Shown here piece after piece: positions 9,593-30,885 of a stretch of DNA of 32,000 nucleotides. How positions within the stretch are numbered: position 1 is the stretch's first letter; each line of letters begins with the position of its first letter. The stretch spans positions 330,001 through 362,000 of the forward strand of contig NC_005072.1 in assembly GCF_000011465.1 (NCBI RefSeq), written 5' to 3'. The DNA comes from Prochlorococcus marinus subsp. pastoris str. CCMP1986 (GTDB lineage Bacteria; Cyanobacteriota; Cyanobacteriia; PCC-6307; Cyanobiaceae). The notes beneath the pieces were generated by a model that searched no databases, was not told where the DNA came from, and saw only the letters and a program-made list of their open reading frames with translations. Made by a program: the position numbers and the translations under genes.

Positions 9593-9781
9593 ATGCTTAC
9601 AACAAAAATTACTTATGCCCTATCAGATTGGATTAGAGAATGGCGAAAATGTAGAAAAGAAAATCCATCTCTTGATGATTGTATAAAGTTTACAGAATGG
9701 AAAATAGAAAATTATGAATTAACAGATAGTGATCGAATGATAATTGAGAGTATTTTACTTTATGAAACTGAAGAAACTTAA
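9593..9781 (+). CDS. small conserved protein, paralog of 29300..29485
   Basis: The 62-aa and 61-aa proteins align over their full length (WIREWRKCRKENPSLDDCIKFTEWK...ELTDSD versus WIQNWKKTYKENPKLNECITWFEWK...ELTSSD). Confidence 0.55.
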   Translation: MLTTKITYALSDWIREWRKCRKENPSLDDCIKFTEWKIENYELTDSDRMIIESILLYETEET

Positions 9782-13653: not shown

Positions 13654-13677
13654 AAGGCCTATTTAAGGCCTTTTTTT
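13654..13677 (+). terminator. Rho-independent terminator
   Basis: AAGGCC (13654-13659) pairs with GGCCTT (13667-13672), followed by a T-run. Confidence 0.55.
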
Positions 13678-14031
13678 ATTAGATAAACTTATATAAGTTA
13701 TTTGAAAGGCATATGGTTATGACTTTTTATCGGTATATCTCGTGACAATAAATATATTTCAAAATAATTAATTTATTAAAAAATCCTTCCTTCTATGCGG
13801 CCTATCTCAGAGAAACTTTATAAGAAATTAGTTAAAGCTTCCAAAAAATGAATAGATTACTTCTTTACTTTTCAGCTCTATATTTTGGAGCAAATATCGG
13901 AAAAACTATTGCAAGTGATAGTTTTACATATTATTTAATGATTTCTAATTAATCTTTTTTTTTTTCTTGGAAATTTTTAAGCATTTCTTTTTGACTATAA
14001 AATATTGAAGTAATCTTAAAAAACTCTCAAA

Positions 14032-14496
14032 GTGCATTTAGATAAAAGTAGTTCTGAAATCATAAATAAATTTAAATTATCTCCTCACCCTGAGGGAGGA
14101 TGGTTTAGAGAAATCATACGAAGTAAAAATCATGTAACCAGAAATGATGGTCAAAAAAGAAATAATATTACTAGCATTTACTATCTACTTTGTAAAAGTG
14201 AGAGAAGTAAATGGCATCGAGTAAATTCTTCCGATGAGATATGGATTTATCTTCAAGGGGCACCCCTTAATTTATATTTTCTCGATGATAATAAAGAATT
14301 AAGAAATATTAGATTAGATTTAAATAATCCTATTGAAATGATCCCCTCTGGATATTGGCAGGCTGCTAGCAGTACAGGAGAATTTACACTCACAAGTTGT
14401 TGTGTTGGCCCAGGGTTTGATTTTAATGATTTTCAAATGCTAAGAAATATAGATCCTTCTCTAAGACCAGCCAAGGCTATTAAAGAACTAATTTAA
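14032..14496 (+). CDS. cupin superfamily protein, DUF985-like
   Basis: LSPHPEGGWFREIIRS is the remembered DUF985 N-terminal signature. GTG start. Confidence 0.7.
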   Translation: MHLDKSSSEIINKFKLSPHPEGGWFREIIRSKNHVTRNDGQKRNNITSIYYLLCKSERSKWHRVNSSDEIWIYLQGAPLNLYFLDDNKELRNIRLDLNNPIEMIPSGYWQAASSTGEFTLTSCCVGPGFDFNDFQMLRNIDPSLRPAKAIKELI

Positions 14497-14517
14497 TTTT
14501 TAAAATTTTTTTATAAT

Positions 14518-14904
14518 ATGATTGAAATGAATCATGATCTTATTAATACAATCGGCATAAAGCAGATAGCAAGAGAAGAAGCCCATCTTTACCAGGTGAG
14601 TGATGTTCAAGGATTAATTGATACTCTTGATAAGGATATTTCTGAATGGTCTGATTTTGATTGTTGGGAAAATATACGAGTTCAGCAATGGATTTTTGAG
14701 AGAGCTATGGATATTTATAAAGGTAAGAAAATTGATATTAAATGTAATTGTTGTGAATACAATTACATAAGTCAAAGAGACTTAGTAAAAAGTTCAAATA
14801 AAAAATGTTACGGGATAAAAAGTGCTTATATGATCGAAAAGGTTTTCCATGAAATTACATTAGCTGAAGCTAGAAGAGAAAGTGATGGTACATATTCAGC
14901 ATAG
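14518..14904 (+). CDS. hypothetical protein
   Basis: 128-aa ORF, 22 nt after the previous gene. Contains a CNCCEYN cysteine cluster. No family recognised. Confidence 0.45.
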   Translation: MIEMNHDLINTIGIKQIAREEAHLYQVSDVQGLIDTLDKDISEWSDFDCWENIRVQQWIFERAMDIYKGKKIDIKCNCCEYNYISQRDLVKSSNKKCYGIKSAYMIEKVFHEITLAEARRESDGTYSA

Positions 14905-14968
14905 AGTTGTTAAAAATTTACCTTTCTAAGATTAATAAGTGAAACTAAGCTATTAGTTCATAGACTTT

Positions 14969-15265
14969 ATGAAGATTATGGATAATTTTGATGATGATCT
15001 TTCTTTAAAACAAAAAGAATTTGTAGAGCCTATAGATAAAGCTACAAATAAAGATTTATTTGAAAAAAAAGATGAATTTAAAGAGGCAACTCCAAAAGTT
15101 CTTCATCTTAATTCACTTATTACAAAAAATATTTATCTTTTTACAAAAGATCCAAACTATAAATTGTTTGCCTGGCTAATGGTTCAGCTATTTATATTTT
15201 CATTATTTGTTTTGGTGGCGACATTAATGAAAAATAATCTTGTCCCCTATATTAATTCTCTTTAA
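14969..15265 (+). CDS. hypothetical protein with C-terminal TM helix
   Basis: 98-aa ORF with a charged N-terminal half, then LFAWLMVQLFIFSLFVLVATL. Confidence 0.4.
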   Translation: MKIMDNFDDDLSLKQKEFVEPIDKATNKDLFEKKDEFKEATPKVLHLNSLITKNIYLFTKDPNYKLFAWLMVQLFIFSLFVLVATLMKNNLVPYINSL

Positions 15266-15389
15266 AGATTTAGACTGAGTTATATTTCTTATTTTTTTTA
15301 TTCATTAATTATTATTTTGAATTGGTGATATAATCAAATCATTCCACTTATGGATCTATAATCACATATAGTCACTTTTAATATTAGAA

Positions 15390-15821
15390 TTGAATAATAT
15401 ATATAGGTATGAAAAAGATATGACCCAAGCAAAATTGGAGGGTTTATTAAAAATAGATAACGAATCATATAACCTTTTACGAGTCCTCACAATGTTCATG
15501 AAGTTAGATAATTCTCAGGACGTTCCTCTTCAGGCAATGGCAGTATTTTGGTACGTAGCAACCTATCAAAATTGTACTAAGAAGGATATTGAAAAATACT
15601 TCGATATGAGTAAAGCTAGTGCTTCAAGGATGACGGACTATATAAGTCGATATCATAGGCTAGGTAAGGCAGGCTTAGGTCTAGTTTCTAAAGAACAAGA
15701 TCCAAAAGATAAAAGAAGAACACTTTTGAAACTTACAAGGAAAGGTAAAGATCTAATTGAAAAGTCTTTTAATACTCTCTATGAGGATATGAAAAGTTTT
15801 GAAGCTGAATTTGAAGAATAA
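15390..15821 (+). CDS. MarR-like winged-helix transcriptional regulator
   Basis: KKDIEKYFDMSKASASRMTDYI (HTH) followed by DPKDKRRTLLKLTRKGKDLIE (the DPxDxR...LTxxG wing) matches MarR architecture. TTG start; alternative ATG at 15420. Confidence 0.6.
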   Translation: MNNIYRYEKDMTQAKLEGLLKIDNESYNLLRVLTMFMKLDNSQDVPLQAMAVFWYVATYQNCTKKDIEKYFDMSKASASRMTDYISRYHRLGKAGLGLVSKEQDPKDKRRTLLKLTRKGKDLIEKSFNTLYEDMKSFEAEFEE

Positions 15822-15975
15822 ATACTTGCAGCTCTTTTGATTCCTTAGCTATTGGAAACTTTTAAAACATTTAAACTTGCTCTGAAACACAAATAACAGG
15901 TTATCCTTTTTCTTAATAGAAAATAACAACTTAGTAGTTACTCCATAGACTTTCTTAGAAGTTAGAATTTAATAA

Positions 15976-16263
15976 TTCATTAATTCATTATCACCAGCAA
16001 AAACAGCAATTGAGGAATATAGAGAAAAGTTAGAAAAGATTTACCAACAATTAAATGAAGAAGAAGATCCCCTTTTAAAAAAATGGTATTAATCACTTAT
16101 TCCTAAGGCGATATTATTATTTCCTGTAGTTGCTTTTGGTCTTACATTTTTAAAAGTAAATACTGATAAATCAATATTAGATTTACTCTCTTTTGCTGCA
16201 GTTGGTAGTTTATTAGTTTTTGGAGGTATTTTTTTGAATTATTTCTTATCTAAACGAAGATAA
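15976..16263 (+). pseudogene. possible decayed gene: one reading frame interrupted by a single in-frame TAA and lacking an ATG
   Basis: Same frame reads FINSLSPAKTAIEEYREKLEKIYQQLNEEEDPLLKKWY, then TAA (16090-16092), then SLIPKAILLFPVVAFGLTFLKVNTDKSILDLLSFAAVGSLLVFGGIFLNYFLSKRR. That is a soluble helix plus two TM helices, with no canonical start in either half. Confidence 0.35.
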
Positions 16264-16644
16264 TTGAAGCATTTAGTCAAATAAAAATCTTAAATATTAA
16301 AAAATTGATTTAGCTCTATTAGCTCTGCGGATTGTTTTTTTTAAAATATGATTTTTTATGGAAAGGTCAGAAATCGCATAGAGAGTTAAAAAGAAAACTG
16401 CTTTTGCAAAAATTGAAATTTGCATAATAAAAATAAACTTATTTATATAGAACCAAATCGCTAAATATAAGCAAGTCCTTAAAGACCTCAAAATCGTCAA
16501 GAAATAATTAATTAACAGTCCAATAAGAATAAAGAGGCAATTTACTTTTCTCCGATAATCTTTTTATTTGTAGATTATCTATATTAGAAATTATTAACAA
16601 AATTATTTTTAGTAATTAATACTCTAGATATTTAATACCTTCCC

Positions 16645-16729
16645 CAAGTAATGTAATAATATCAGAAACTCCTCACACACTAATTTCTGATAATCAGGCA
16701 CCCTTATCTCTAAATTAGGGTGTTTTTTA
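16645..16729 (+). ncRNA. yfr1-like: Yfr1-like sRNA (carries ACUCCUCACAC). 5' end uncertain
   Basis: ACTCCTCACAC at 16668-16678 is identical to the ultraconserved Yfr1 motif as I recall it. It can sit in the loop of ATCAGAAA/TTTCTGAT (16661-16691). Terminator CACCCT...AGGGTG plus T6 at 16699-16728. Confidence 0.6.
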
Positions 16730-16759
16730 TTGACATAAAAACATAAAGTCATAACTGGC

Positions 16760-16921
16760 ACATGTGACAATTAAATTACTTTTCTCATCCCCTTCCGGTT
16801 TAGGAGAATGTATGGCATATTAAAAAGGTGTGTAGGAGAGGTTTTACTGAAACAGTGGAAACAAGGAAACACTTGATTTAGTTAAACCAAGGAAAGACCT
16901 CTATTAGGGGTCTTTTTTTTT
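16760..16921 (+). ncRNA. Yfr2-family-like sRNA candidate. 5' end uncertain
   Basis: GGTGTGTAGGAGAGG (16827-16841) is near-complementary to the CTCCTCACACAC of the neighbour. Repeated GGAAACA units lie at 16857-16872. A strong terminator AGACCTC/GGGGTCT plus T9 lies at 16895-16921. TTGACA at 16730-16735 is a possible -35. Confidence 0.45.
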
Positions 16922-16953
16922 ATGCTTCAAAATAGATTGAATATTAAATTATT

Positions 16954-17136
16954 TTATTGGTGAAAATTATTAGAGGAGCCAATGGTTAAATTCTGAGTTG
17001 AAATCTTATAGAACTTCTCATGTACTGAATCACTAAATTCCTTTTCATTTGAATAATTCATTAGGTCCAGCGGTTCAATATTTTCGTCGAACCATTCGTC
17101 ATATTCAATATTATTAGGTTCAGCAAAATAAGTCAT
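16954..17136 (-). CDS. hypothetical acidic protein
   Basis: 60-aa ORF with an ATG start. Confidence 0.4.
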   Translation of the reverse strand: MTYFAEPNNIEYDEWFDENIEPLDLMNYSNEKEFSDSVHEKFYKISTQNLTIGSSNNFHQ

Positions 17137-17295
17137 ATTTAATTATTAGCTATCAAAAAATATGTAAACGGTACATGCTATACAAAATTAAAGATTAATT
17201 AATAGAAAGGAAATTGAAAAATCTAAATTCAGAGACAAATTAAGTGCTTCCTTAATTATTGGTTTTAAATTAGTAATTACACAACTATTTTTTAT

Positions 17296-17616
17296 ATGGC
17301 TCATTATCATGTTCATGGATTAATTCCTGATGGAATCTCTCAATCTGAAGGTTACAAAATGTTTGAGCAATATATTGCTTCCGGTTCACCAATGGATAAC
17401 TTTGAAGGATTTGAATTAATAAGTAGACTTCATGCCCCTGAAACCGGAGAAGTCTTTGTGACTTTCAAAGCTGATAATCACTTAGCAATATCTGAACATT
17501 TCGGAGTATGGAGAGCAAAATTTGGCCTCGAATGGAATATCACTGCTGTTTTAAATGATGAAGAAGTCATTCAAAGAAATAAGCAGGTTGCAGATGCTGT
17601 TGCTGCGATGGGATAA
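17296..17616 (+). CDS. DUF3303-like protein (paralog 1 of 4)
   Basis: Aligns with 19383..19691 (SGSPMDNFEGFELISRLHAP versus EGSPYDSFEGFKVLNRVLNP; ...TAVLNDEE versus TPVLTDEE) and more distantly with 28218..28490. Confidence 0.6.
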   Translation: MAHYHVHGLIPDGISQSEGYKMFEQYIASGSPMDNFEGFELISRLHAPETGEVFVTFKADNHLAISEHFGVWRAKFGLEWNITAVLNDEEVIQRNKQVADAVAAMG

Positions 17617-17624
17617 TTTAATTG

Positions 17625-17640
17625 ATTGACAGTCGATCTA
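17625..17640 (+). repeat. 16-nt element ATTGACAGTCGATCTA, copy A
   Basis: Exact match to the reverse complement of four copies at 28196, 28575, 29640 and 30002. Starts 8 nt after the stop codon of the DUF3303-like gene. Confidence 0.9.
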
Positions 17641-17644
17641 TATT

Positions 17645-17669
17645 AGAGGGTTATAACCCTCTTTTTTTT
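17645..17669 (+). terminator. Rho-independent terminator
   Basis: AGAGGGTTATAACCCTCT palindrome followed by T8, directly after repeat copy A. Confidence 0.65.
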
Positions 17670-18045
17670 AATAGCAAAGAACACTATCAGCTTTAATTGA
17701 TTCTTCAATTAGTAAATCAGGCATAGCAAACTCTGCTTTATATCCATTTAGAAGCTTCTCATCGTAACCTCTAGATTTGGCTGACATTCCTGAGACATAT
17801 ATGGTAACTTTTGAATTTTTTAAATTTTCAAGATGTTCGTATAAATCTCCAGTACCTTGACCAACTATTTCTCCAGCTTGTTTGCAATTTAATATGTCTA
17901 CTCCGTCTCCTGCCAGAAAAAGAGTTACTTTATGATCGTTTTTTTCTGCAGTAAGTGCAACAAGTAAACCTAAAGTTATTTTATTTTGGGATTCTAAACC
18001 GCTATAAATATGCACTAGCACTGTATTGTCGGTAATGATAGACAT
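17668..18045 (-). CDS. DsrE/DsrF-like family protein
   Basis: 125 aa with an LVHIYSG...LGLLVALTAEKNDHKVTLFLAGDGV Rossmann-like start and a C-terminal ...ADSVLCY. This resembles the DsrE-fold sulfur-relay/YrkE-type small proteins. Confidence 0.55.
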   Translation of the reverse strand: MSIITDNTVLVHIYSGLESQNKITLGLLVALTAEKNDHKVTLFLAGDGVDILNCKQAGEIVGQGTGDLYEHLENLKNSKVTIYVSGMSAKSRGYDEKLLNGYKAEFAMPDLLIEESIKADSVLCY

Positions 18046-18222
18046 TTAAATCTCCCTAGAATTCAGTTATTTAATCTTAAAAAATTCTATCTTTATTAGC
18101 TGCATTTTTTATGAAACCCTTACCACTGGCAAAGCTAATTATTAGTAATTGAGATTCAATCTGAATTGAAGGGCAATTAGCTTCTTTTTTTCTTAATATT
18201 GAATTAAAAAGTATTCAAATTT

Positions 18223-18627
18223 ATGAGATCTCTTTTATTCTTACCTTTACTTTTTGGTTTCTCAGGACCAGCTATTGCAGATTCAGAAGTATTTAAAATA
18301 GATGTATCAGCAGAGAGTTATCGAAACTATATTCTTAGTGGAACTGATAGGAATGGATCTGTAAGTGGGGAAGATCCTACCGTTACACTGAATAAAGGAG
18401 ACACAATTATTTTTGATGTTGATGCATCTCGTCATCCGTTCTATATAAAGACTGAATTTTCTCGTGGAGGTGGTGATCAGGTAATCACAGGGACAATTTC
18501 TGGAACTCCTGGAACGCAAAATGGAAAACTATCATGGAATACCACGGGCGTATCAGCAGGTAAATACTTTTATGTTTGTTCTCCGCATGCATCTTTTGGA
18601 ATGGGCGGGACAATTATTGTTGAATAA
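18223..18627 (+). CDS. secreted cupredoxin (type-1 blue copper protein-like)
   Basis: Signal peptide MRSLLFLPLLFGFSGPAIA. Candidate ligand set HPF...C-SP-H-ASFG-M (YFYVCSPHASFGM = Cys-x2-His-x4-Met), typical of plastocyanin/azurin-type sites. Confidence 0.75.
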   Translation: MRSLLFLPLLFGFSGPAIADSEVFKIDVSAESYRNYILSGTDRNGSVSGEDPTVTLNKGDTIIFDVDASRHPFYIKTEFSRGGGDQVITGTISGTPGTQNGKLSWNTTGVSAGKYFYVCSPHASFGMGGTIIVE

Positions 18628-18631
18628 ATAA

Positions 18632-18781
18632 ATGAAACGCTTACTACTTACTCCTATATTTAAATGTTTTAAAAAGAGTGCTTTTTTCTCATCACTTAAT
18701 CAGAATACTTGTCCTGTTTATGATGCTGAAGAAATAAAAAAACAAGAACAAAAAGAAGCTATTAATAAGTTATATCCATAA
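18632..18781 (+). CDS. mini-ORF (49 aa) co-transcribed with the cupredoxin
   Basis: ATG lies 5 nt after the cupredoxin stop. Hand translation: MKRLLLTPIFKCFKKSAFFSSLNQNTCPVYDAEEIKKQEQKEAINKLYP. Its stop overlaps the terminator. Confidence 0.35.
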   Translation: MKRLLLTPIFKCFKKSAFFSSLNQNTCPVYDAEEIKKQEQKEAINKLYP

Positions 18782-18807
18782 AAAAAGGGCGTTAAGAACG
18801 CCCTTTT
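18781..18807 (+). terminator. Rho-independent terminator (bidirectional shape)
   Basis: AAAAAGGGCGTTAAGAACGCCCTTTTT: a GC-rich 6-bp stem with an A-run and a T-run on either side. Confidence 0.7.
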
Positions 18808-18819
18808 TAAAAGCTAGAT

Positions 18820-18967
18820 CATCCCCATCACCCAGCCTTTATAAAATCATAGCACTACATATGGTGTTTGACTGTAATATTTCTTGCTTTAGGTGGGGTT
18901 GTTTATTTCTATTTTATTTGCCATGATAGAAATCCCCATCACCTAGACTCGCAAGGGTCTTTTTTTT
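18820..18967 (+). promoter_or_regulatory. structured leader / attenuator-like element or sRNA upstream of the ABM-like gene
   Basis: ATCCCCATCACC occurs twice (18820-18831 and 18931-18942), with a single GGTGGGG (18891-18897). A long hairpin spans 18889-18944. Terminator AGACTC-GCAA-GGGTCT plus T9 (18944-18967) ends exactly at the ATG at 18968. Confidence 0.4.
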
Positions 18968-19357
18968 ATGCCTAGTTTTGGATCAGACACTCCATTTATG
19001 CTTCTTGCAAAATTAAAGATTAAGGAAGATAAAGTTGCCGAATATTTAGAAATTGCTGATAAGACAGATAAGGCTGTTGAAGCAGACGAACCAGGAATGC
19101 TTCATCATACTTTTGATCAAGATCCAGACGATCCACTTTGTTTTGTATGGTCAGAAGTTTATAAAAACGATGATGCTTTACTTGCACATTTAGCTAATCC
19201 AGCAGTAGGTGAATATCTTGAAGCTCATGCTGAGTTAGGGACTGATTTTTCTGTTGAATTTTACGGGACTGTGGGAGATAAAGTGATTGAAGCTATGAAA
19301 GGAACTGGGGTTCCTTTTAAAGTCTTCAAAACACAATTCGGTTATAGCAGGTTTTAA
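18968..19357 (+). CDS. ABM (antibiotic biosynthesis monooxygenase)-like dimeric alpha/beta-barrel protein
   Basis: LLAKLKIKEDKVAEYLEIADK...CFVWSEVYKNDDALLAHL fits the ABM-domain pattern. The true start may be ATG 18998 (MLLAKLKIK), because the first 10 codons abut the terminator T-run. Confidence 0.6.
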   Translation: MPSFGSDTPFMLLAKLKIKEDKVAEYLEIADKTDKAVEADEPGMLHHTFDQDPDDPLCFVWSEVYKNDDALLAHLANPAVGEYLEAHAELGTDFSVEFYGTVGDKVIEAMKGTGVPFKVFKTQFGYSRF

Positions 19358-19382
19358 GGTTAGTGAAATAGCTAATTATTTA

Positions 19383-19691
19383 TTACGCCGCTGTTTCTAT
19401 CTGATCTGTAACTGCAACGAACTCTTCATCAGTAAGAACAGGTGTTACTTCTATTTCATTTCCAAAGCCAGCACTCCAAGGCTGACACCACTGCCAAATT
19501 TTTGAATGGTCAGAAGCTTGAACTATTGCCCAACCATTAGCTCCCTGAGGATTTAAAACTCTATTTAAAACTTTGAATCCTTCGAAACTGTCATAGGGAG
19601 ATCCCTCTTTTACATAATCAGTAAATGTTTTGGTTGCTTTCATTGAAGCTTCCATTGATGGGAACTGCCATTGAACTATGTATGTTTGCAT
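19383..19691 (-). CDS. DUF3303-like protein (paralog 2 of 4)
   Basis: See 17296..17616. Convergent with the ABM-like gene across a 25-nt gap. Codon usage is visibly richer in G/C than neighbouring genes. Confidence 0.6.
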   Translation of the reverse strand: MQTYIVQWQFPSMEASMKATKTFTDYVKEGSPYDSFEGFKVLNRVLNPQGANGWAIVQASDHSKIWQWCQPWSAGFGNEIEVTPVLTDEEFVAVTDQIETAA

Positions 19692-20135
19692 AAAGTTTTT
19701 ATTGATTAGTTAACTAATTATGAACAAAATTTTTTAAAAGAAAATTGAAAGTTAAATAACGAATACCAAAATACAGACAGCTATGTTTAACAGCAAGCCT
19801 AAAGTTTGAGAATTAAATTTTATCTCTAATTTGCATGACTAAAGGATCAAAAAGAATCTTAGTCCTAGTGGCAACCACAAACATAGAAGAAGCATAAGTA
19901 ATAAAGAAATAGCATGGACATTTGGAATGTACCGCTCTTTAAAAATTTGTGTCTTCATAATCTATCTGGCTTTCCTAAGTTTGATTTCTCTTCTGACAAG
20001 TAAACCTAAAACTACAACACACATATTTATTAGAAAAACATCTAATGGCATTAAATAAAAAAAAGTATCTACTTAATTAATAGCAAGAATATTGGTATAT
20101 GAATCAAGAAAGAATCACTAAAATACTTAGACTAC

Positions 20136-20273
20136 TTATTCAGATTCTTTATGAAGTCTCTGAAAGAAACCTTCTCTTCTCCAATAATCTTCATATATAA
20201 GGTTTCTTTTTTGATAATCTAATGCGTTCATATTCTTGTCGAGTATGGCAAAAGGAGAATTAGTAAATTTCAT
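20136..20273 (-). CDS. mini-ORF (45 aa), paralog of 20803..20988
   Basis: Hand translation: MKFTNSPFAILDKNMNALDYQKRNLIYEDYWRREGFFQRLHKESE. It shares SPF.IL.K....LDY.K with MNLKTSPFSILNKERRELDYIKG. Confidence 0.45.
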   Translation of the reverse strand: MKFTNSPFAILDKNMNALDYQKRNLIYEDYWRREGFFQRLHKESE

Positions 20274-20425
20274 AGTAAATCCTAAAATAATTGTTTATTA
20301 AATATCTATTAGATATGAGATCTTTTATCTCGAATAACTAGATCCTCTATAAGTAAGCTTTATTGTCTTCTCTTCTTGGCTCTTGCAATATACAAATGAC
20401 TTGCCATTAAAATACATGTTTACCA

Positions 20426-20524
20426 TGATGCAGCTCCTGAACTTGCTCAAGTCCCCGTCCTTTGGCTTGAGTCGTACTGCGGTCTATCTAGTGGTAGATC
20501 GGACGATTTGGTAGCTGTAGCTAC
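20426..20524. other. G/C-rich structured island (three consecutive hairpins). Candidate ncRNA or foreign DNA remnant
   Basis: Hairpins CTCAAG/CTTGAG (20446-20471), GGTCTATCTA-GTGG-TAGATcGGAC (20481-20504) and GTAGCT/AGCTAC (20511-20524). The only ORF (29 aa) uses G/C-rich codons atypical of this window. Confidence 0.3.
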
Positions 20525-20588
20525 ACTTTATTTATAGAGTATTTGTACTCAATTGTCAATATATTTAGTTAAATTCAATATTCGGAGA

Positions 20589-20732
20589 TTAAGCAGATTC
20601 GGTTAATTTGTTCTTCATATCTTCAATTTTATTAATTAATTCATCTAACCATTTTGTATTATTTTCTGATCTTTCTTTTAAATATGAAATTTTTGGTTGA
20701 TTCATTTCATGTGTCTCGAAATCTCCGCTCAT
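20589..20732 (-). CDS. mini-ORF (47 aa)
   Basis: Hand translation: MSGDFETHEMNQPKISYLKERSENNTKWLDELINKIEDMKNKLTESA. Confidence 0.3.
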   Translation of the reverse strand: MSGDFETHEMNQPKISYLKERSENNTKWLDELINKIEDMKNKLTESA

Positions 20733-20802
20733 AAAATTTTTCCTTTTCTAAATTTTTTTATGTGATTAGTGAATTAATCAGCATCAATAATTAAATAAAT
20801 AA

Positions 20803-20988
20803 TTAGATAGAAATCCTGTCGATCATCAATACATCTTGGGTTTGTATTGTATCTCTCTTATTTTCATCCTCAGAATCTTTATAAGAATCGATTTCAGCTT
20901 GAACTCTTCTCTTATAAACTCCTTTTATGTAATCCAGTTCTCTTCTTTCTTTATTTAAAATTGAGAATGGTGAGGTTTTTAAGTTCAT
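20803..20988 (-). CDS. small protein, paralog of 20136..20273
   Basis: 61-aa track ORF. N-terminal 22 aa are about half identical to the 45-aa mini-ORF. Confidence 0.5.
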   Translation of the reverse strand: MNLKTSPFSILNKERRELDYIKGVYKRRVQAEIDSYKDSEDENKRDTIQTQDVLMIDRISI

Positions 20989-21015
20989 TAATAGCTCCTT
21001 TAAAATAATTTTGAA

Positions 21016-21153
21016 TTAACACCAGTTTTTATCAGATTCAATAAAAATATCTATAGTTTGCTGATTTCTGGTTTCTTCCTCTAGAAGTTCTTCTTCTGAT
21101 CTTTTTTGAATCTCGGAGTCATAAACTTCTTTTTTTGTTGGTGTGGTAGACAT
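21016..21153 (-). CDS. mini-ORF (45 aa, acidic)
   Basis: Hand translation: MSTTPTKKEVYDSEIQKRSEEELLEEETRNQQTIDIFIESDKNWC. Confidence 0.3.
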   Translation of the reverse strand: MSTTPTKKEVYDSEIQKRSEEELLEEETRNQQTIDIFIESDKNWC

Positions 21154-21525
21154 TTTGTTATGACAACTACTCATATGTTCTAACTAAATAGATAAGTAAT
21201 ACGATTAATAAAGATGTTCGGTTTGAGGTACTCCAATATACGGATAGAGGATCAACAATTAAATTTCAAAATGGTTAAAATTGGCAAGGTTTAAATAGAA
21301 TAAGATAAAATATTTACTATTTACGAGGTACCTAAATAAGTATTAATTCGCAGGTTTAATCATAATTGGGATTCACTTCTTAGCAATATTTTTCATTCGT
21401 AAACAATATTTTTTTTGAGTTTGTTATGTAAGTAATCAAATTTAAAACAAAATTTGGAGGTAAATCTAAAGGCTTTAAAGTAGTAAAACCATTCCTTGAG
21501 TTACATTAAAACCTTTATGTTCCAA

Positions 21526-21660
21526 TTAGCTAGGAAGTTGGTGTGTAGGTGGTGCATGAAATTTTCTCTTTTTTCTTTTTGATCTCTTGTAAATAACAAA
21601 AAGACCTAATCCTAATAAAGGAAATAATAAACCCTCTACAAATAAGGGAAAGTTAATCAT
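21526..21660 (-). CDS. mini-ORF (44 aa, single TM plus basic tail)
   Basis: Hand translation: MINFPLFVEGLLFPLLGLGLFVIYKRSKRKKRKFHAPPTHQLPS. Confidence 0.3.
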   Translation of the reverse strand: MINFPLFVEGLLFPLLGLGLFVIYKRSKRKKRKFHAPPTHQLPS

Positions 21661-21741
21661 AATCGTTACCCCTATGTAATCGTTATGGAATTATTTAGCC
21701 CAAAGTAACACTTTAATTATTATCGGTCGATCACTTGGGTC

Positions 21742-21846
21742 TCATGATTCAATTTTATGAGACCTTTTCCCTTTAAGAATCATCAATAAAGGCAAACCTA
21801 AAATCATCAGACCCCCATCTATCATTAAAAAAGTATTCAAACTCAT
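21742..21846 (-). CDS. TM mini-protein (34 aa), paralog of 31850..31945
   Basis: MSLNTFLMIDGGLMILGLPLLMILKGKRSHKIES versus MNLNTFLLIDGSLMLIGFPLLMILKGKKRTP. Confidence 0.5.
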   Translation of the reverse strand: MSLNTFLMIDGGLMILGLPLLMILKGKRSHKIES

Positions 21847-21855
21847 TTATTTATT

Positions 21856-22020
21856 TCATCTAAGTGGTATTCCTTTTTTTACGGTGTCTTTTTTCATATC
21901 GTCCATCTCTTCCATGATTTTGTTGTAAAAGGCTAGCTCTTCAGGATCCTTAGAACCGAGTCCATATTTCAATGTTGCAGCAAGATATATTCTGTGCTTT
22001 CGATATGAAGATAATGCCAT
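21856..22020 (-). CDS. small protein (54 aa), paralog of 31662..31853
   Basis: MALSSYRKHRIYLAATLKYGLGSKDPEELAFYNKIMEEMDDMKKDTVKKGIPLR versus MTLSSYRMHRIYLAATMGYGLGSDDPEEVAYYKKLRKEMDEMKKDVVKKGIPLT... Confidence 0.55.
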   Translation of the reverse strand: MALSSYRKHRIYLAATLKYGLGSKDPEELAFYNKIMEEMDDMKKDTVKKGIPLR

Positions 22021-22194
22021 AGACGACCTTAATTACTAAATCATATCTAACTTCTTTGTACGTTATATGTATCTCCCTTACCAAGGGGAGTAGTTGCTAG
22101 ATATAAGATAGTTATAGCAGTTATTTATAGCGAAAAATATATTAGATATTACTAAAATAGTGCAAAAACTAGTGCATAATAAGGTTAATCTGTT

Positions 22195-22527
22195 GTGCTT
22201 ATGCAAAAAAGAGCATCAAAATTAGAAACGGATTTCAGGATTAGAGAAGCTGCTGATCTTGTCATTGAAGGTCTAGCTTTTAGTTCAATTACGTCCTATA
22301 TGTCCAAAAAATATACCATTAGCAGAAGACAGGCTAGAAGGATAGCTGTTGATGCGTATAAAGTTATTAGAACTGATATCGAGGAAAGTGATTTAGATAG
22401 AAAAGAGATGACATCTAAATTAGTTTGTTTACTTGAGAATACAATGCACTTAGCGATGAAGGAAAAGCAATATTCTGCAGTTGCTACAAATGCGAGAGTA
22501 TTGATGAGGCTTATTAGGCTTGAATAG
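22195..22527 (+). CDS. small helix-turn-helix-like protein (phage-type DNA-binding / small-terminase- or excisionase-like)
   Basis: 110 aa. FSSITSYMSKKYTISRRQARRIAVDAYK looks like an HTH followed by a helical tail. GTG start; ATG at 22201. The family assignment is a guess. Confidence 0.4.
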   Translation: MLMQKRASKLETDFRIREAADLVIEGLAFSSITSYMSKKYTISRRQARRIAVDAYKVIRTDIEESDLDRKEMTSKLVCLLENTMHLAMKEKQYSAVATNARVLMRLIRLE

Positions 22528-22907
22528 TTATTTTGTATTTCTTAAATGGGATACTATGAGATTTTGTTAAATGTTTTAACAATAAATTTATAATTATTTT
22601 TTTATTTTTCTTTTACTAATGATTAATAATTTTTTTTCAACATAAAAAAATATTGATAATAATTAGATTCTTAAATTAATTCAAATTAAATATTTATAAT
22701 TTAATAATTAATATGCATTCAATTAATAATTTATACTAAATATAAATTTATTTAATTAAAGAAATAATCTCTTCTTGTCCAGTTGAAAACTATATTTCTA
22801 GGTCTTATTTAGATTAAAAAAATATTTCACAAAATTATAAATGAAAATGATTATTATTTTTAAAGCTAATTTATTTTGAAAACTAAATTATTAAATCTAA
22901 GAAAAAT

Positions 22908-22921
22908 GTATTTGTTAATAC
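22908..22921 (+). promoter_or_regulatory. NtcA-type binding site GTA-N8-TAC upstream of cynA
   Basis: GTATTTGTTAATAC. The hexamer AATACT (22944-22949) sits 22 nt after the box, which is the class-II NtcA promoter geometry. This implies a TSS about 20 nt before the ATG at 22975. Confidence 0.55.
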
Positions 22922-22974
22922 AACACAAGTGAAATTTAAAATAAATACTGGAGCTGTTATTAAATATTTAATTG

Positions 22975-24660
22975 ATGCTTAATCCAGTAAATAATTCTAC
23001 TAAAAAGTATAATTTTAAATGTGGTCCCTCATCTGCAGATAATTCAGATCAGTTCCAAGATAATTCTCAAAATTCATTAAATAATCTTTTAAATCCAGCT
23101 AATAATCATGGATATTTGTGTGCATGCGTTGAATGCAGACCAATAGGTAATGATCATGAAAACTTCATGTCAGATATGCCGGACGATCCAGTAGAGATAA
23201 TATCTGATTTTTCTCGCATGGGTCTTATCAAAAATCAGGCTTACGAAGTAGCTGATGCCATTTCTACTGCAGAAATGCGAGATCTTTTATTCTACAAAAA
23301 TGCATCTAATGGTGATCCTTATAAAGAGAAATTATTAAGAGAATTAGCTAAAGAGGCTGGTGGATTAGATCAAGCATTTAGAGCTGCCTTTGGACCTCAA
23401 GCAGGTAAGTTTTTTGCAAATACAAGGGCTTCATCTCCTATGGGTAGGAGAGCTTTTTTATCGAGTCTTGCAGCAGGTGCAGCTTTAATTACAGTAGCTT
23501 GTTCTAATCAAAATAAACCTACAAAACAACCTATTGATGATACACCGATAAATATTAATAACTTAGAAAAACAAACTTTACGAGTTGGTTTTATCCCAAT
23601 AACATGTGCTTCGCCAATCATTATGGCAGAACCAATGGGCTTTTATAACAAGTTTGGAATGGATGTCAAAGTTGTTAAAATGCCAAGCTGGGGAGCTGTA
23701 AGAGATTCTGCCATAGCAGGTGAATTAGATGCTTACCATATGCTAGCTCCGATGCCAATTTCTATGACTCTTGGTCTAGGAACTTCACCATTTAGCGTAA
23801 AACTAGCAAGTATTGAAAATATTAATGGTCAAGCAATTACTGTTGCTAATCGTCATAAAGGCAAAGTAAAAGGACCTGCGGATATGAAAGGCTTCATTTT
23901 TGGAGTCCCTTTCCCTTATTCAATGCATAATCTTCTTTTGAGATATTATCTTGCAAAAGGTGGTGTTGATCCAGATAAAGACGTTCAAATTCGTCCTGTT
24001 CCACCCCCAGATAGTATTGCTCAATTAGTTGCAGGTGATATTGATGCTTACTTAATGCCTGATCCATTTAACCAAAGAGCCGTTTATGAAGATGCAGGAT
24101 TCATTCATCTTCTTACAAAAGAATTATGGCCTGGTCATCCATGCTGTGCATTTGCAGCAGGAGAGCCTTGGATAAATGAGCACCCTGAAACTTTTAGAGC
24201 GCTCAATAAATCAATTATCGATGCGGCAGCCTATGTTTCAACACCTTCAAATAGAAAGGAGGTAGCTAAGGCTATTTCGGGAAGAGGTTTTTTAAATCAA
24301 CCTACTGAAGTTGTTGAAGCAGTTCTTACAGGTAAATTTGAAGACGGATTAGGTAAAACTCAAAACGTGCCTGACCGAATTGATTTTAAACCTTATCCTT
24401 GGCAGAGTTTTTCTCATTGGATACAATCTCAGCTTATAAGATGGGATCTAGGAGGGGCTGTAGCGGCTATTCAGGCTGGTGATTTTAACCCAAATAGTGC
24501 CTCTATTTTTCTAACTGATGAAGCTCAGGCATTAGAAAGAGAAATGGGAGGTAATCCACCTACCGCTAGGTTTAGAAAAGAAGTTTTGGCTTATGATGAA
24601 TTTGATCCAAGTAATCCAATCAAATATGTCAAAGATCAAATAAAAAGAGACGGTTTCTAA
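22975..24660 (+). CDS. cynA: cyanate ABC transporter substrate-binding lipoprotein (NrtA/CmpA family), long form
   Basis: LRVGFIPITCASPIIMAEPMGFYNKFGMDVKVVKMPSWGAVRDSAIAGELDAYHML is NrtA-like. The twin-arginine lipoprotein signal MGRRAFLSSLAAGAALITVAC begins at the internal ATG 23440. The 155 codons upstream are stop-free and in frame. Confidence 0.85.
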   Translation: MLNPVNNSTKKYNFKCGPSSADNSDQFQDNSQNSLNNLLNPANNHGYLCACVECRPIGNDHENFMSDMPDDPVEIISDFSRMGLIKNQAYEVADAISTAEMRDLLFYKNASNGDPYKEKLLRELAKEAGGLDQAFRAAFGPQAGKFFANTRASSPMGRRAFLSSLAAGAALITVACSNQNKPTKQPIDDTPININNLEKQTLRVGFIPITCASPIIMAEPMGFYNKFGMDVKVVKMPSWGAVRDSAIAGELDAYHMLAPMPISMTLGLGTSPFSVKLASIENINGQAITVANRHKGKVKGPADMKGFIFGVPFPYSMHNLLLRYYLAKGGVDPDKDVQIRPVPPPDSIAQLVAGDIDAYLMPDPFNQRAVYEDAGFIHLLTKELWPGHPCCAFAAGEPWINEHPETFRALNKSIIDAAAYVSTPSNRKEVAKAISGRGFLNQPTEVVEAVLTGKFEDGLGKTQNVPDRIDFKPYPWQSFSHWIQSQLIRWDLGGAVAAIQAGDFNPNSASIFLTDEAQALEREMGGNPPTARFRKEVLAYDEFDPSNPIKYVKDQIKRDGF

Positions 24661-28167: not shown

Positions 28168-28195
28168 AGAAAAAGGAGCTAGTTGCTCCTTATTT

Positions 28196-28211
28196 TAGAT
28201 CGACTGTCAAT
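28196..28211 (-). repeat. 16-nt element ATTGACAGTCGATCTA, copy B
   Basis: Exact copy, 6 nt after the stop of 28218..28490. Followed on the minus strand by hairpin AAGGAGC/GCTCCTT, TTTCT, then the ATG at 28167. Confidence 0.9.
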
Positions 28212-28217
28212 CACTTT

Positions 28218-28490
28218 CTATGAGTAGACTTTGGCAACTAATGGACCAGCTTCCTCATCAGTAAATACAGGTGTGGTTTCCCAATTTAGAAATTCACCCC
28301 ATTCAGCGGCATGTTGATATATTGCTTTTGGATCATCAGTCTTTAAAACTATCCAACCCTCTAAAGAACCAGGTGCGTGATATCTTCCAATCATCTCAAC
28401 TCCAGGATAATCTCCCCCACCACCAAGAAATTTTTCTGCACCTTTTTGATGATATCCGGCCTTAAATGACCAATGCTGAACATAAAGCAT
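28218..28490 (-). CDS. DUF3303 family protein (paralog 3 of 4; best match to the family pattern)
   Basis: MLYVQHWSFKAGYHQKGAEKFLGGGGDYPGVEMIGRYHAPGSLEGWIVLKTDDPKAIYQHAAEWGEFLNWETTPVFTDEEAG closely follows the remembered DUF3303 consensus. Confidence 0.75.
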   Translation of the reverse strand: MLYVQHWSFKAGYHQKGAEKFLGGGGDYPGVEMIGRYHAPGSLEGWIVLKTDDPKAIYQHAAEWGEFLNWETTPVFTDEEAGPLVAKVYS

Positions 28491-28574
28491 TTTATTTTTT
28501 AATTTTTATTGGCTTTCTATTACTAGCAAAATAAATAATTCCTGAAAATAAATATTACTAATTGCCCATTTTTT

Positions 28575-28590
28575 TAGATCGACTGTCAAT
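28575..28590 (-). repeat. 16-nt element ATTGACAGTCGATCTA, copy C
   Basis: Exact copy located between the minus-strand terminator (28605-28649) and the DUF3303 gene start (28490). Confidence 0.9.
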
Positions 28591-28604: not shown

Positions 28605-28649
28605 TCAAAAAAGAGGTTGAACTCAGCCTTTAAATGAAAACAACCTCTT
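28605..28649 (-). terminator. Rho-independent terminator of the mini-ORF operon
   Basis: AAGAGGTTG (28611-28619) pairs with CAACCTCTT (28641-28649). On the minus strand it is followed by a U6-type run. Confidence 0.6.
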
Positions 28650-28691
28650 TAGGAATACTTAGCTTATTTTTATTTAATAGGATTTGGCTGT

Positions 28692-28806
28692 TTAAACCAA
28701 TCTCATTAAATTCTCTGGTGGACTATCAATCATTTCTGATCCCTCCATTTGATTAACTAGAAATTACTATGGATAATATTTTCTGTATATCGGTATTAAT
28801 GCCGAT
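28692..28806 (-). repeat. repeat unit copy 2: ATCGG/CCGAT hairpin, spacer, GGAGGG, mini-ORF MIDSPPENLMRLV
   Basis: Hairpin 28789-28806, GGAGGG (reverse complement of 28741-28746), mini-ORF 28692..28733 containing ATTGATAGTC. Homologous to 9900-10000. Confidence 0.5.
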
Positions 28807-28942
28807 TTTTAATATAGAAAGCCAATACTAATAAAACTACAGTAAAACTTAAAACAATAATCCCAATGTCTGGTTGCTTTGCATTTGTGAAATAAGTAGG
28901 ATTTTCTACTGGAATTTCAATTATTTCTCCTTCTTCAATCAT
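28796..28942 (-). CDS. mini-ORF f (48 aa, C-terminal TM)
   Basis: Hand translation: MIEEGEIIEIPVENPTYFTNAKQPDIGIIVLSFTVVLLVLAFYIKNRH. Its ATG overlaps the stop of ORF e (TAATG). Confidence 0.5.
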   Translation of the reverse strand: MIEEGEIIEIPVENPTYFTNAKQPDIGIIVLSFTVVLLVLAFYIKNRH

Positions 28943-29055
28943 TACTTATATGTATTGAGTAAAAATATATAAAATCCCAACAATACTAATGTTGCTGTAC
29001 CTACACCAATAACTGTAGCTGGTTGATTATTCCAAAGTTGATTAAAAAATTCCAT
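28942..29055 (-). CDS. mini-ORF e (37 aa, TM)
   Basis: Hand translation: MEFFNQLWNNQPATVIGVGTATLVLLGFYIFLLNTYK. Its start abuts the stop of ORF d with a 0-nt gap. Confidence 0.5.
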   Translation of the reverse strand: MEFFNQLWNNQPATVIGVGTATLVLLGFYIFLLNTYK

Positions 29056-29211
29056 TTATTTTAATTTTCTTGTTCCACCATAAGAATATTGGCTTTCTTT
29101 TGAAACAATATGCCAACACTTTTTACAGCAAAAAATCCACCTTTTATAATTTATAGATTTTACTCTGTAATGGATCACATCTTCCTTATTGCATAAATCA
29201 CACTTTTTCAT
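29056..29211 (-). CDS. mini-ORF d (51 aa, 4-5 Cys zinc-ribbon-like)
   Basis: Hand translation: MKKCDLCNKEDVIHYRVKSINYKRWIFCCKKCWHIVSKESQYSYGGTRKLK (CxxC...CCxxC). ATGA overlap with ORF c. Confidence 0.5.
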   Translation of the reverse strand: MKKCDLCNKEDVIHYRVKSINYKRWIFCCKKCWHIVSKESQYSYGGTRKLK

Positions 29212-29297
29212 TTTTTTATCATTTTAAAAGTTAAATACGCAAAGCCACCAAGTAATAACAGACTAATAACTCCATAAGTAATTGCTATTCCATACAT
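29208..29297 (-). CDS. mini-ORF c (29 aa, TM)
   Basis: Hand translation: MYGIAITYGVISLLLLGGFAYLTFKMIKK. It starts 2 nt after the stop of 29300..29485. Confidence 0.45.
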   Translation of the reverse strand: MYGIAITYGVISLLLLGGFAYLTFKMIKK

Positions 29298-29299
29298 AA

Positions 29300-29485
29300 T
29301 TATTCTTCCGAGTTATATCTCAAAATAGTTGCAATTGAACTCTTGTCACTTGAGGTAAGTTCTCTATCTTGATATTTCCATTCAAACCATGTAATACATT
29401 CATTTAACTTTGGATTTTCCTTATAAGTTTTTTTCCAGTTTTGTATCCAATTGGCTAATGCACTTGCTTCATCTGTATTTAACAT
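29300..29485 (-). CDS. small conserved protein b (61 aa), paralog of 9593..9781
   Basis: Track ORF. Full-length similarity to the 62-aa protein at 9593..9781. Confidence 0.6.
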   Translation of the reverse strand: MLNTDEASALANWIQNWKKTYKENPKLNECITWFEWKYQDRELTSSDKSSIATILRYNSEE

Positions 29486-29610
29486 TATCCATCTAACCTA
29501 TCTGCGTAATCTCTTAAAACTTCAGCCATCTTTTGGGGTGGAATTTCTTCTTGATATTCTCTACATAAATCAAAAAATTTATCTAAGAAATCTTTCATTG
29601 AAGAGGACAT
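29485..29610 (-). CDS. mini-ORF a (41 aa), first gene of the operon
   Basis: Hand translation: MSSSMKDFLDKFFDLCREYQEEIPPQKMAEVLRDYADRLDG. Its stop overlaps the ATG of ORF b (TAATG). Its ATG lies 29 nt downstream of repeat copy D. Confidence 0.45.
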   Translation of the reverse strand: MSSSMKDFLDKFFDLCREYQEEIPPQKMAEVLRDYADRLDG

Positions 29611-29639
29611 GAAAAAAGGGGCTTCTGTACCTTCTACTT

Positions 29640-29655
29640 TAGATCGACTGTCAAT
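29640..29655 (-). repeat. 16-nt element ATTGACAGTCGATCTA, copy D
   Basis: Exact copy, 34 nt after the stop of 29690..29971. Followed by GAAGG...CCTTT plus a T-run, then the ATG at 29610. Confidence 0.9.
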
Positions 29656-29971: not shown

Positions 29972-30001
29972 TAATGAAAATGAGCTAATTTGCCCTTATT
30001 T

Positions 30002-30017
30002 TAGATCGACTGTCAAT
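30002..30017 (-). repeat. 16-nt element ATTGACAGTCGATCTA, copy E
   Basis: Exact copy, 1 nt after the stop of 30019..30486 and 30 nt before the ATG at 29971. Confidence 0.9.
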
Positions 30018-30486: not shown

Positions 30487-30885
30487 TTAATATTTAATAA
30501 ATTTACTTACTTAATAATATTTAGAAAAAACATCAATCGCCCCTATTTTTATATTGAAAATTTAAGAAACTTTTTTCTTTATAAGTTATTTTTAATTTGA
30601 AAAAAATATTTGCATAATTTCTTACAACTGGTAATTTTAGTTGACTTGGATAACTCAAATGCAAGATCAAAGAATTGAAAAGATAGCAGCAGTCACAGTA
30701 AACATAACTAAGGTTCTGGCAATAATTTATTTTGGCTTAGTAGAAGTATTTAAAATAGGCAAATTAACTAGAAAGATATTAGTTACTGAATCTAATAATT
30801 CTCAAAAATGGGCTTCAAAAACTTATTCAATTTTAAAAATACGACAAGCTAGACAAAAACTAGCAGCATAAAAAATTAGTTATTT

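Follow-up and report, generated by a model that had tools for sequence, protein, structure and literature searches.

In a 32,000-nucleotide stretch of the chromosome of Prochlorococcus marinus subsp. pastoris, strain CCMP1986 (MED4; contig NC_005072.1, positions 330,001 to 362,000; hereafter the window, in which the chromosome coordinate equals the window coordinate plus 330000), we analyzed six back-to-back open reading frames (ORFs), a to f, that start with ATG and fill positions 28796-29610 of the minus strand. The window lies in genomic island 1, a hypervariable region. Our data indicate that a-f probably constitute one polycistronic unit of this island that encodes six autonomous small proteins, and that this unit is a mosaic of separately inherited modules. 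Annotation already existed for four of the genes (a, b, e and f), and expression had been reported for one (a). New are the finding that c and d are conserved genes, the loss from MED4 of a further mini-gene (c'), the mapping of a single transcription unit that ends in the small RNA (sRNA) Yfr11, and a mosaicism that operates ORF by ORF. In the literature we found no prior description of the coupled six-cistron layout, of c, d or c', of the mosaicism, or of the link to a transcription start site (TSS).

Six mini-genes on a probable single transcript

All six ORFs are encoded on the minus strand. The first in the direction of reading, a (29485-29610; PMM1838/PMED4_04151), specifies an acidic, soluble protein of 41 aa with an isoelectric point (pI) of 4.4, and is followed by b (29300-29485; PMM1837), which specifies a Trp-rich, soluble protein of 61 aa with a predicted three-helix bundle. 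ORF c (29208-29297) encodes a predicted single-pass membrane peptide of 29 aa and was not in the original MED4 annotation, and d (29056-29211), also unannotated in MED4, encodes a basic protein of 51 aa that is predicted to form a four-cysteine zinc module. The last two are e (28942-29055; PMM1836), a predicted single-pass membrane peptide of 37 aa, and f (28796-28942; PMM1835), with 48 aa that comprise an acidic N-terminal head and one predicted membrane helix. The a/b junction is TAATG (1-nt overlap), b and c are separated by a 2-nt gap, c and d overlap by 4 nt (ATGA), d and e join with a gap of 0, and the e/f junction is again TAATG. The coordinates, lengths and stop/start geometry given in the original prediction, which was made from the sequence without database searches, were all reproduced, and so was its view that such packing is improbable by chance: on a single strand, ATG-started ORFs that are 25 aa or longer span 99.75% of the 815 nt, while in 5000 dinucleotide-preserving shuffled controls ORF coverage averaged 30% and reached at most 82%. 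Exact-sequence look-ups returned PMM1835-1838 (f, e, b and a) as 'hypothetical protein' in GenBank and c only in recent automated gene calls, and the exact sequence of d was absent from a collection of 15 billion proteins. Steglich et al. 2008 (PMC2518516) listed PMED4_04151, an island 1 neighbour of Yfr11, among the short mRNAs that a tiling array detected.

The start of the a-f transcript can be placed with published differential RNA sequencing (dRNA-seq) data, in which an 'orphan' TSS lies at window position 29627 (MED4 359627, minus strand) and leaves a 17-nt leader before the ATG of a. Read et al. 2017 (PMC5607370, Suppl. Tables 8-11) list this site in each of four libraries: nitrogen-replete cells gave 1013 reads at 12 h and 606 at 24 h, and nitrogen-deprived cells 877 and 908 at the same times; the listed reads thus differ little between the two conditions. 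No further TSS is present on either strand between 359627 and 358753 in the four tables (PMC5607370). The latter position is the own TSS of Yfr11 (28606..28754, minus strand; Rfam RF02363, 151 bits), an sRNA with 5' and 3' ends that were mapped by rapid amplification of cDNA ends (RACE; PMC2518516) and with a published location, complement(358606..358754), that is in agreement with the Rfam match. What had been noted from the sequence as a terminator at 28605-28649 is the 3' end of this sRNA, whose intrinsic terminator closes the unit. Since a TSS lies 17 nt upstream of a and none follows until Yfr11, the simplest reading is a single mRNA that begins at 29627, spans a-f and ends at the Yfr11 terminator that RACE mapped to ~28606. 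A stronger promoter of its own also yields Yfr11, and in the dRNA-seq tables the Yfr11 reads outnumber those of the upstream TSS 359627.

Yfr11 itself contains a conserved mini-ORF at ~28692-28748 (minus strand) with the translation M(EGSE)MIDSPPENL[M/I]RLV*. A GGAGG located 8 nt ahead of its second ATG is the sole strong Shine-Dalgarno-like sequence of the whole unit, and the mini-ORF is intact in 9 of the 9 Yfr11 copies examined, including the divergent copy of locus L010. Yfr11 might therefore be a dual-function RNA or the mRNA of a micropeptide.

To assess coding capacity we assembled about 150 related loci (L numbers) from exact-protein look-ups, from one genome per GTDB species (20 loci, all Prochlorococcus) and from metagenome contigs, and compared the ratio of nonsynonymous to synonymous substitution rates (dN/dS, by Nei-Gojobori) in the proposed frame with that in the two off-frames. 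The ratio was 0.13 for a (off-frames 1.1 and 2.5), 0.11 for b (1.6 and 2.9), 0.16 for c (1.0 and 1.8; 22 unique sequences), 0.16 for d (1.07 and 0.96; 73 unique sequences) and 0.36 for f (0.75 and infinite). By this sequence-based measure, purifying selection acts on a-d and f. The relatives of the six are numerous and constant in length: the 90% cluster of a has 552 members, b has 115 cluster representatives of which nearly all are 61 aa, d has ~50 clusters of relatives, e falls into two clusters, of 64 and 14 members, whose listed sequences are almost all 37 aa long, and f has at least 235 clusters, nearly all of 48-49 aa.

The predicted properties of the products agree in several respects with what had been proposed from the letters of the DNA. 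AlphaFold models b with a predicted local distance difference test (pLDDT) score of 93 as a three-helix bundle (helices 4-21, 27-37 and 45-59). Its UniRef name goes back to a match with HTH_ABP1_N (PF18107) that, at 19.4 bits (E 8.5e-4), stays below the Pfam gathering threshold of 22.5 bits, and Foldseek searches of PDB and BFVD gave no significant hit (best E>0.6), with helix-turn-helix (HTH) and LexA-type domains among the weak matches; an HTH function of b would be only a lead. In a profile search of 1.84 billion representatives, b found ~50 relatives of ~60 aa, unnamed and marine, plus a few repetitive false positives. The d protein (pI 9.6) is modelled with pLDDT 85 as strand-strand-helix-strand, with its second cysteine pair at the start of helix 30-36. 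The CxxC...CCxxC pattern to which attention had been drawn is borne out in 28 sequences, where C4, C7 and C28 never vary and conservation of C29 and C32 is 90% or more, and the placement of the cysteine pairs predicts a zinc ribbon or treble-clef-type module. Searches of d against Pfam, the PDB sequences and, by Foldseek, the PDB structures gave no named family; nothing in the PDB fold search was significant, and the weak matches were ZZ and other zinc modules. The three membrane peptides likewise held up: each of c, e and f contains a single hydrophobic stretch of 19 residues with a Kyte-Doolittle value of 2.0-2.9, which in c covers residues 4-22 and is followed by a C-terminal KK. Their N-termini are acidic or neutral and their C-termini basic, a charge pattern that, under the positive-inside rule, suggests an N-out/C-in topology. 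For e, no Pfam family was found at E<=1, the label 'DUF3149' being present in UniRef only. In line with the earlier remark that no family could be recognized, neither the six peptides nor the related c', F, g and h described below scored above threshold in Pfam, NCBIfam, PHROGs or PADLOC, and the PDB sequence search gave no peptide match.

Mosaic arrays in related genomes

The fullest array among the relatives comprises nine genes in the order a.b.c.c'.d.e.F~g~h, followed by Yfr11, which comes after f or h in every long array. The seventh mini-ORF, c', lies between c and d in most relatives, encodes 31 aa with one membrane helix, and overlaps its neighbours by ATGA on both sides (3278-3373, plus strand, in both L003 and L005; equivalents in L002, L004, L006, L008, L010 and L015-L020). 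It is missing by clean in-frame loss from MED4, L009, L028 and L035; in MED4 and a few others this was a 90-nt in-frame deletion that restored a c/d ATGA overlap. F is a 131-aa long form of f (L003 3639-4034, plus strand; also in L004, L006, L008 and L029), in which a basic coiled region and then a C-terminal ...YYLGKKGGLYYRSSKGTRIYI domain come after an f-like acidic head and membrane helix; the cluster of F comprises 370 members and matches no family. That f is merely a truncated F was ruled out by the at least 235 clusters of 48-49 aa, which make the short form the commoner one. The in-frame dN/dS was 0.20 for c' and 0.11 for g, where off-frame values across the ORFs compared were roughly 0.7-3.

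Elsewhere, only subsets of this array are found. Some loci have just a.b, and others b.c.c' with a missing, a.b.c.d~h, or a.b.c.c'.e with d missing; f also stands by itself behind a 114-aa gene, and d is the sole module in ~65 of 80 metagenome loci. Every adjacent pair is split somewhere, namely a|b in L015-20 and L131, b|c in L011-13 and L022-23, c|c' in the MED4 window and L009, c'|d in L010 and L015-20, d|e in L009 and the ~65 d-only loci, and e|f in L010 and L144-151. The tight stop/start junctions are nonetheless kept in every relative, and after the loss of a module the new gap ranges from -4 to +6 nt. No Shine-Dalgarno-like sequence was found ahead of d, e or f, where the upstream 15 nt lack a purine-rich run. 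The tight junctions would be retained because the cistrons downstream lack both a promoter and a Shine-Dalgarno sequence of their own. That every pair is separable while the junctions stay tight argues against a complex of fixed stoichiometry and favours independent modules. The original prediction of coupled translation with fixed stoichiometry can accordingly be divided: coupling stands as a reasonable interpretation of the conserved junctions and of the missing Shine-Dalgarno sequences at d, e and f, while fixed stoichiometry does not. Conservation among the relatives splits in the same way: junction tightness was found in all of them, and gene content varied as mosaic subsets.

Several contexts of the single modules are worth recording. 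For d, in the loci inspected, the commonest one is a pair in which a DUF1651 gene follows at a distance of 15 nt, and in many cases a gene for an SRAP (SOS-response-associated peptidase) lies upstream (L046 1400-1828; also L047, L057, L061, L071, L072 and others). In four genomes, the a.b cassette and its motif lie directly downstream of a tRNA gene (L011 4736-4807, L012, L013 and L014 1069-1140), a kind of gene at which Prochlorococcus islands typically insert. Paralogs of g adjoin glutamine-II riboswitch aptamers (L008 1756-2042, L011 8785-9071, L012 and L014), and the window has its own copy of this riboswitch at 20446-20508 (minus strand). Within the window, a paralog of b (9593..9781, plus strand; 62 aa, 49% identity) stands alone upstream of Yfr8/9. 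No c-f neighbours were found beside it, as had been stated before. It is preceded by a 33-aa ORF (together 9448-9781, plus strand) and followed by the sRNA pair Yfr8/9 (9952-10177), a succession of small genes and then sRNA that echoes the a-f/Yfr11 layout. A paralog of h, the gene that ends the full-length array elsewhere, is found at 30659..30871 (plus strand; PMED4_04181) with 78% identity. The neighbours of the unit are genes for DUF3303, DUF1348 and LptC-like proteins, genomic island 1 has cyanate transporter and lyase genes next to it, and Rfam matches in the window are Yfr8/9, Yfr10, Cyano-1, the glutamine-II riboswitch and Yfr11, at places that agree with the published MED4 coordinates (PMC2518516) after the shift by 330000.

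A promoter and hairpin element at the unit boundaries

The promoter of the unit, which had been noted before as copy D of a repeat, lies at 29636..29654 (minus strand) and consists of TTGACAGTCGATC followed directly by the -10-like hexamer TAAAGT, with the TSS 9 nt downstream. The next copy of the boundary motif (28573..28589, minus strand) has the hexamer TAAAAA, not TAnAnT, and no TSS; other copies that match the motif are at 29998-30016 (minus strand), 28192-28210 (minus strand) and 17626-17644 (plus strand). Five copies of the 17-mer TTGACAGTCGATCTAAA are present in the window, where 0.11 are expected. From 72 unique instances (loci L002-L159) we derived a composite element that consists of the 13-mer, TAnAnT, a GC hairpin, a T-run and an ATG. 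The hexamer is TAAAAT in 29 of these instances and TAAAGT, TAAACT, TACAAT or similar in the others, and the start codon lies a median of 25 nt past it. The hairpin arms covary (GGAGC/GCTCC or GAGGG/CCCTC), and the predicted minimum free energy has a median of -6.8 kcal/mol and is -5 or lower in 43 of the 72. The spacing between TTGACA and TAnAnT is 7 nt in 72 of 72 instances, as compared with ~17 nt for a sigma-70-like promoter.

Published TSSs were found 7-9 nt after the hexamer at three of the window copies (358183, 359627 and 359991). Of the two copies without a TSS, one is that with TAAAAA and the other has no downstream ORF. As the mapped start lies within the hairpin sequence, the hairpin can form solely in RNA that reads through from the gene upstream. 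The element thus joins a promoter that serves the downstream gene to a predicted terminator-like hairpin that serves the gene upstream. Because it directly follows upstream stop codons, it was also considered as a terminator-only or attC-like 3' element, a view that the published TSSs rule out. As to the flanking genes, PMM0378 (28218-28490, DUF3303) is served by a separate promoter with a TSS at 358512 (window 28512, minus strand), and not by the adjacent motif copy; the read counts at this TSS, 11,510-24,265, top the neighbourhood.

The element coincides with the limits of shared sequence. Homology of MED4 with L003 and L004 starts at 29655 and stops at 28573, that is, at the two motif copies that flank the unit. 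More generally, 75 of 432 homology-block breakpoints fell into element windows (1.9% of the sequence), an enrichment of about nine-fold that is not controlled for a general intergenic bias of breakpoints. A literature search with the motif string on both strands and with the locus tags PMM0377-0379, PMM1835-1838 and PMED4_041x1 matched Steglich et al. 2008 only, and the composite element was not found described in the searchable literature. We consider the boundary element a more interesting lead than the a-f genes themselves.

A few copies of the element reside on viral contigs. A scan of IMG/VR with a 15-mer of the motif gave 34 stretches, of which 31 were chance-like matches in unrelated coding sequence and three had the full element; two of these three contigs (L131 and L128) are clearly fragments of T4-like cyanomyoviruses. 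On L131 (IMGVR_UViG_3300006480_000249, 394-562, minus strand), RNase H, several phage genes and phoH are followed by the element and then by an ORF a with one amino-acid change, and b is not on the contig. On L128 (IMGVR_UViG_3300006334_000917), element copies at 329-343 and 1037-1051 (plus strand) are part of the order DUF3764, element, 36-aa ORF, cupin, element, uvsX, gp41, mazG. The third, L111, has the full element at 45-59 (minus strand; 2 kb of an 85-kb contig were looked at). As DUF3764 and cupin also precede a.b in several host loci, these contigs suggest an exchange of cassettes between host islands and cyanophages. In the 2.9 million IMG/VR contigs, b and d were absent and a was present in one only. 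Searches of 50,697 phage genomes with the DNA and, by tblastn, with nine peptides gave no match at E<=1, and the element consensus matched, among cultured phages, only generic hairpins of Vibrio and Escherichia phages.

Among known systems, the element most resembles the PeSL (promoter-early stem-loop) cassettes, which flank ORFans in the hyperplastic regions of T4-type phages and mediate modular shuffling (Arbiol et al. 2010, PMC2839356; Comeau et al. 2014, PMC4122927). Both are repeated intergenic combinations of a promoter and a terminator-like stem-loop that reach up to the next start codon, both flank small ORFans in a hypervariable region, and both have insertion/deletion breakpoints within the element. 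The MED4 element differs in that it is located in a bacterial chromosome and not in a phage, in that its TTGACA is 7 nt and not 17 nt from the -10-like hexamer, in that no Shine-Dalgarno sequence precedes the start codon, and in that modules within the a-f string are exchanged without any such element. It works like a PeSL, yet we do not file it as one because both the 17-nt spacing and the residence in a phage fail. The a-f unit is one of the short mRNAs with small ORFs of the MED4 islands (PMC2518516) and belongs to the same class as the 'flexible gene cassettes' of wild Prochlorococcus (cited in bioRxiv 10.1101/2020.12.28.424599); the a-f locus is not mentioned in the tycheposon preprint (Hackl et al., bioRxiv 10.1101/2020.12.28.424599).

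Looser resemblances exist to three further groups. Phage morons, with which PMC2839356 contrasts the PeSLs, are single accessory genes in prophages that have their own promoter and terminator and lack conserved flanks. The a-f unit shares with them the placement of small accessory genes with their own promoter and terminator between other genes, and differs by having several promoterless cistrons under one promoter and by its conserved-repeat flanks. Hok, Ldr (cited by PMC2518516), TisB and Ibs are type I toxins or single-pass small membrane proteins, to which c, e and f are similar in size (29-48 aa), in their one predicted membrane helix and charged tail, and in their location near an sRNA gene; unlike these, the a-f peptides are encoded in a polycistron together with soluble proteins, and there is no antisense RNA or TSS at a-f. 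Ribosomal protein L24e and the ZZ domains are small treble-clef or TRASH-FCS-like zinc modules. The CxxC...FCCxxC spacing of d, its predicted strand-strand-helix and its best, non-significant fold matches (ZZ and zinc modules) recall these, although d has no significant sequence or fold match.

Probable autonomous modules and the alternatives

Taken together, the data fit the following account. RNA polymerase starts 17 nt upstream of a at a promoter built from the island-wide TTGACAGTCGATC-TAnAnT element, and the Yfr11 terminator closes the unit. To judge from the anatomy of the junctions, d, e and f would be translated mainly by termination-reinitiation, because they have no Shine-Dalgarno sequence and their starts abut or overlap the preceding stop. 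The products would be helical cytosolic proteins (a and b), a basic four-cysteine zinc module (d) and membrane peptides with the N-terminus out and the C-terminus in (c, e and f); they would form no obligate complex, their modules being gained and lost ORF by ORF. The MED4 version is probably a reduced derivative of the nine-gene a.b.c.c'.d.e.F~g~h-Yfr11 array. Its tight packing would have arisen from ORF-precise recombination at the short, A-rich ATGA and TAATG junctions and not from subunit stoichiometry, and selection would also maintain it, as promoterless cistrons without a Shine-Dalgarno sequence thereby stay translatable. The whole unit acts like a cassette of the flexible genome between repeated promoter/terminator elements. 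As a working guess, the proteins may be individually dispensable accessory modulators, with c, e and f acting at the membrane and b and d on nucleic acid or metal.

Some observations weigh against this account. Autonomous accessory proteins are the default reading of such genes, and no ribosome-profiling or proteomic data on a-f were found in the literature. The sub-blocks a.b, b.c.c' and d.e.f recur often, so that pairwise interactions are possible. The weakest case for selection among the six is e, where dN/dS, at the low divergence available, is 0.66 in frame and 0.71 and 1.79 off-frame; its 16 unique DNA variants contain zero stops. A few genomes also carry nonsense or frameshift alleles. 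Such uncompensated lesions in relatives, which the original prediction held would speak against the genes, were seen only sporadically: a nonsense codon in b in three genomes, a stop in a in one, one each in c and d in another, and a frameshift in F in one. The b nonsense codon (codon 29, position ~5085) is shared by L016, L017 and L020, which are three species-representative single-cell genomes in which c and c' are intact. This implies that b is dispensable there, and translation of c and c' would be uncoupled from full-length b. Sporadic inactivation of this kind is the pattern expected of dispensable accessory genes, not of non-coding DNA.

The original prediction favoured a membrane micro-complex whose fixed stoichiometry is enforced by the gapless packing. 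The tight and conserved junctions, the presence of three membrane peptides alongside soluble partners and the single transcription unit would all suit such a complex, but across the ~150 loci the genes are not co-inherited: arrays of a.b only, b.c.c' only, a.b.c.d~h and a.b.c.c'.e occur, d or f is found alone, MED4 lacks the c' that most relatives have, and b is a pseudogene in three genomes with intact c and c'. We therefore regard the complex as improbable. Even less credible, by a small degree, is a toxin-antitoxin system, either as a type II pair of a and b or with c, e and f as type I toxins under an RNA such as Yfr11. One could point to the one-base overlap of a and b, the acidity of a, the small hydrophobic peptides beside an sRNA in a mobile island and the many genomic contexts of the cassettes. 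However, b occurs without a in six genomes, a without b on the phage contig, and the b paralogs are solitary; the four dRNA-seq libraries contain no plus-strand TSS in 358753-359627; Yfr11 is downstream and co-directional, not antisense; and no toxin-antitoxin or defence family (Pfam, NCBIfam, PADLOC) and no significant fold match to b were found. A reading in which the ORFs are not genuine, and the region acts as a leader or precursor of Yfr11 with no coding role, we consider next to impossible. The first genome annotation missed four of the six, the selection signal of e is small and Yfr11 reads exceed those of the upstream TSS, but a-d have dN/dS of 0.1-0.2 in frame versus ~1-3 off-frame, the length-invariant protein clusters number in the hundreds, the ORF coverage far surpasses the shuffle maximum (99.75% versus 82%), and Yfr11 has its own TSS. 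For a-d and f this reading is effectively refuted.

A phage origin, or a role in phage-host conflict, has somewhat more to commend it and is nevertheless unlikely. Under this explanation the array would consist of moron-like early ORFans, or serve superinfection exclusion or defence, and be exchanged between T4-like cyanophages and islands. Strings of overlapping ORFans between promoter and stem-loop repeats mirror the hyperplastic regions of T4-type phages (PMC2839356, PMC4122927), the unit sits in a genomic island, the cyanomyovirus contig L131 combines phoH and the element with an ORF a that has a single amino-acid difference, and L128 carries DUF3764 and cupin cassettes with the element near uvsX, gp41 and mazG. 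Against this stand the near-absence of the genes from viral sequence (b and d in 0 of 2.9 million IMG/VR contigs, a in one; no match in the 50,697 phage genomes; no element in cultured phages), the lack of any PADLOC match, of a significant PHROG match and of a significant viral fold match to b, and the possibility that the transfer went from host to phage. Capture of cassettes by phages from the host is at least as likely as the reverse, and a phage or defence reading of a-f is a minority hypothesis. The more specific suggestions of a phage-defence module, a holin or a set of photosystem subunits, which had been offered on the basis of the sequence, found no backing in PADLOC, Pfam or PHROG matches; for a holin or lysis cassette, moreover, no endolysin is among the neighbours and there is no PHROG or Pfam holin match.

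With the autonomous-module account as the preferred one, a broader idea may be put forward, which we regard as conceivable and still rather doubtful. The islands of high-light Prochlorococcus may be built from TTGACAGTCGATC-TAnAnT-hairpin-Tn-ATG cassettes as the host-encoded counterpart of phage PeSLs, with an element that drives and insulates the cassettes and doubles as a recombination handle for shuffling mini-genes between sites, cells and T4-like cyanophages. If this is true, the a-f string is a snapshot of the shuffling process, and the unusual 7-nt spacing between TTGACA and the -10 hexamer would mark a dedicated regulator or sigma factor of an island regulon.

No phototroph on Earth is more abundant than Prochlorococcus, and small, unannotated island genes largely carry its ecological differentiation. 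The a-f unit indicates that mini-genes as short as 29 aa are genuine, transcribed and under selection, and that d, although missing from the reference annotation, is among the best-conserved genes of the unit. The practical value lies in curated targets for small-protein proteomics and promoter studies and not in a new mechanism. The element, with its 13-nt motif, its mapped start sites and its presence on two cyanomyovirus contigs, provides a testable handle on the expression and exchange of cassettes, and the arrays of the relatives suggest that islands are remodelled one tiny ORF at a time with translational coupling preserved.

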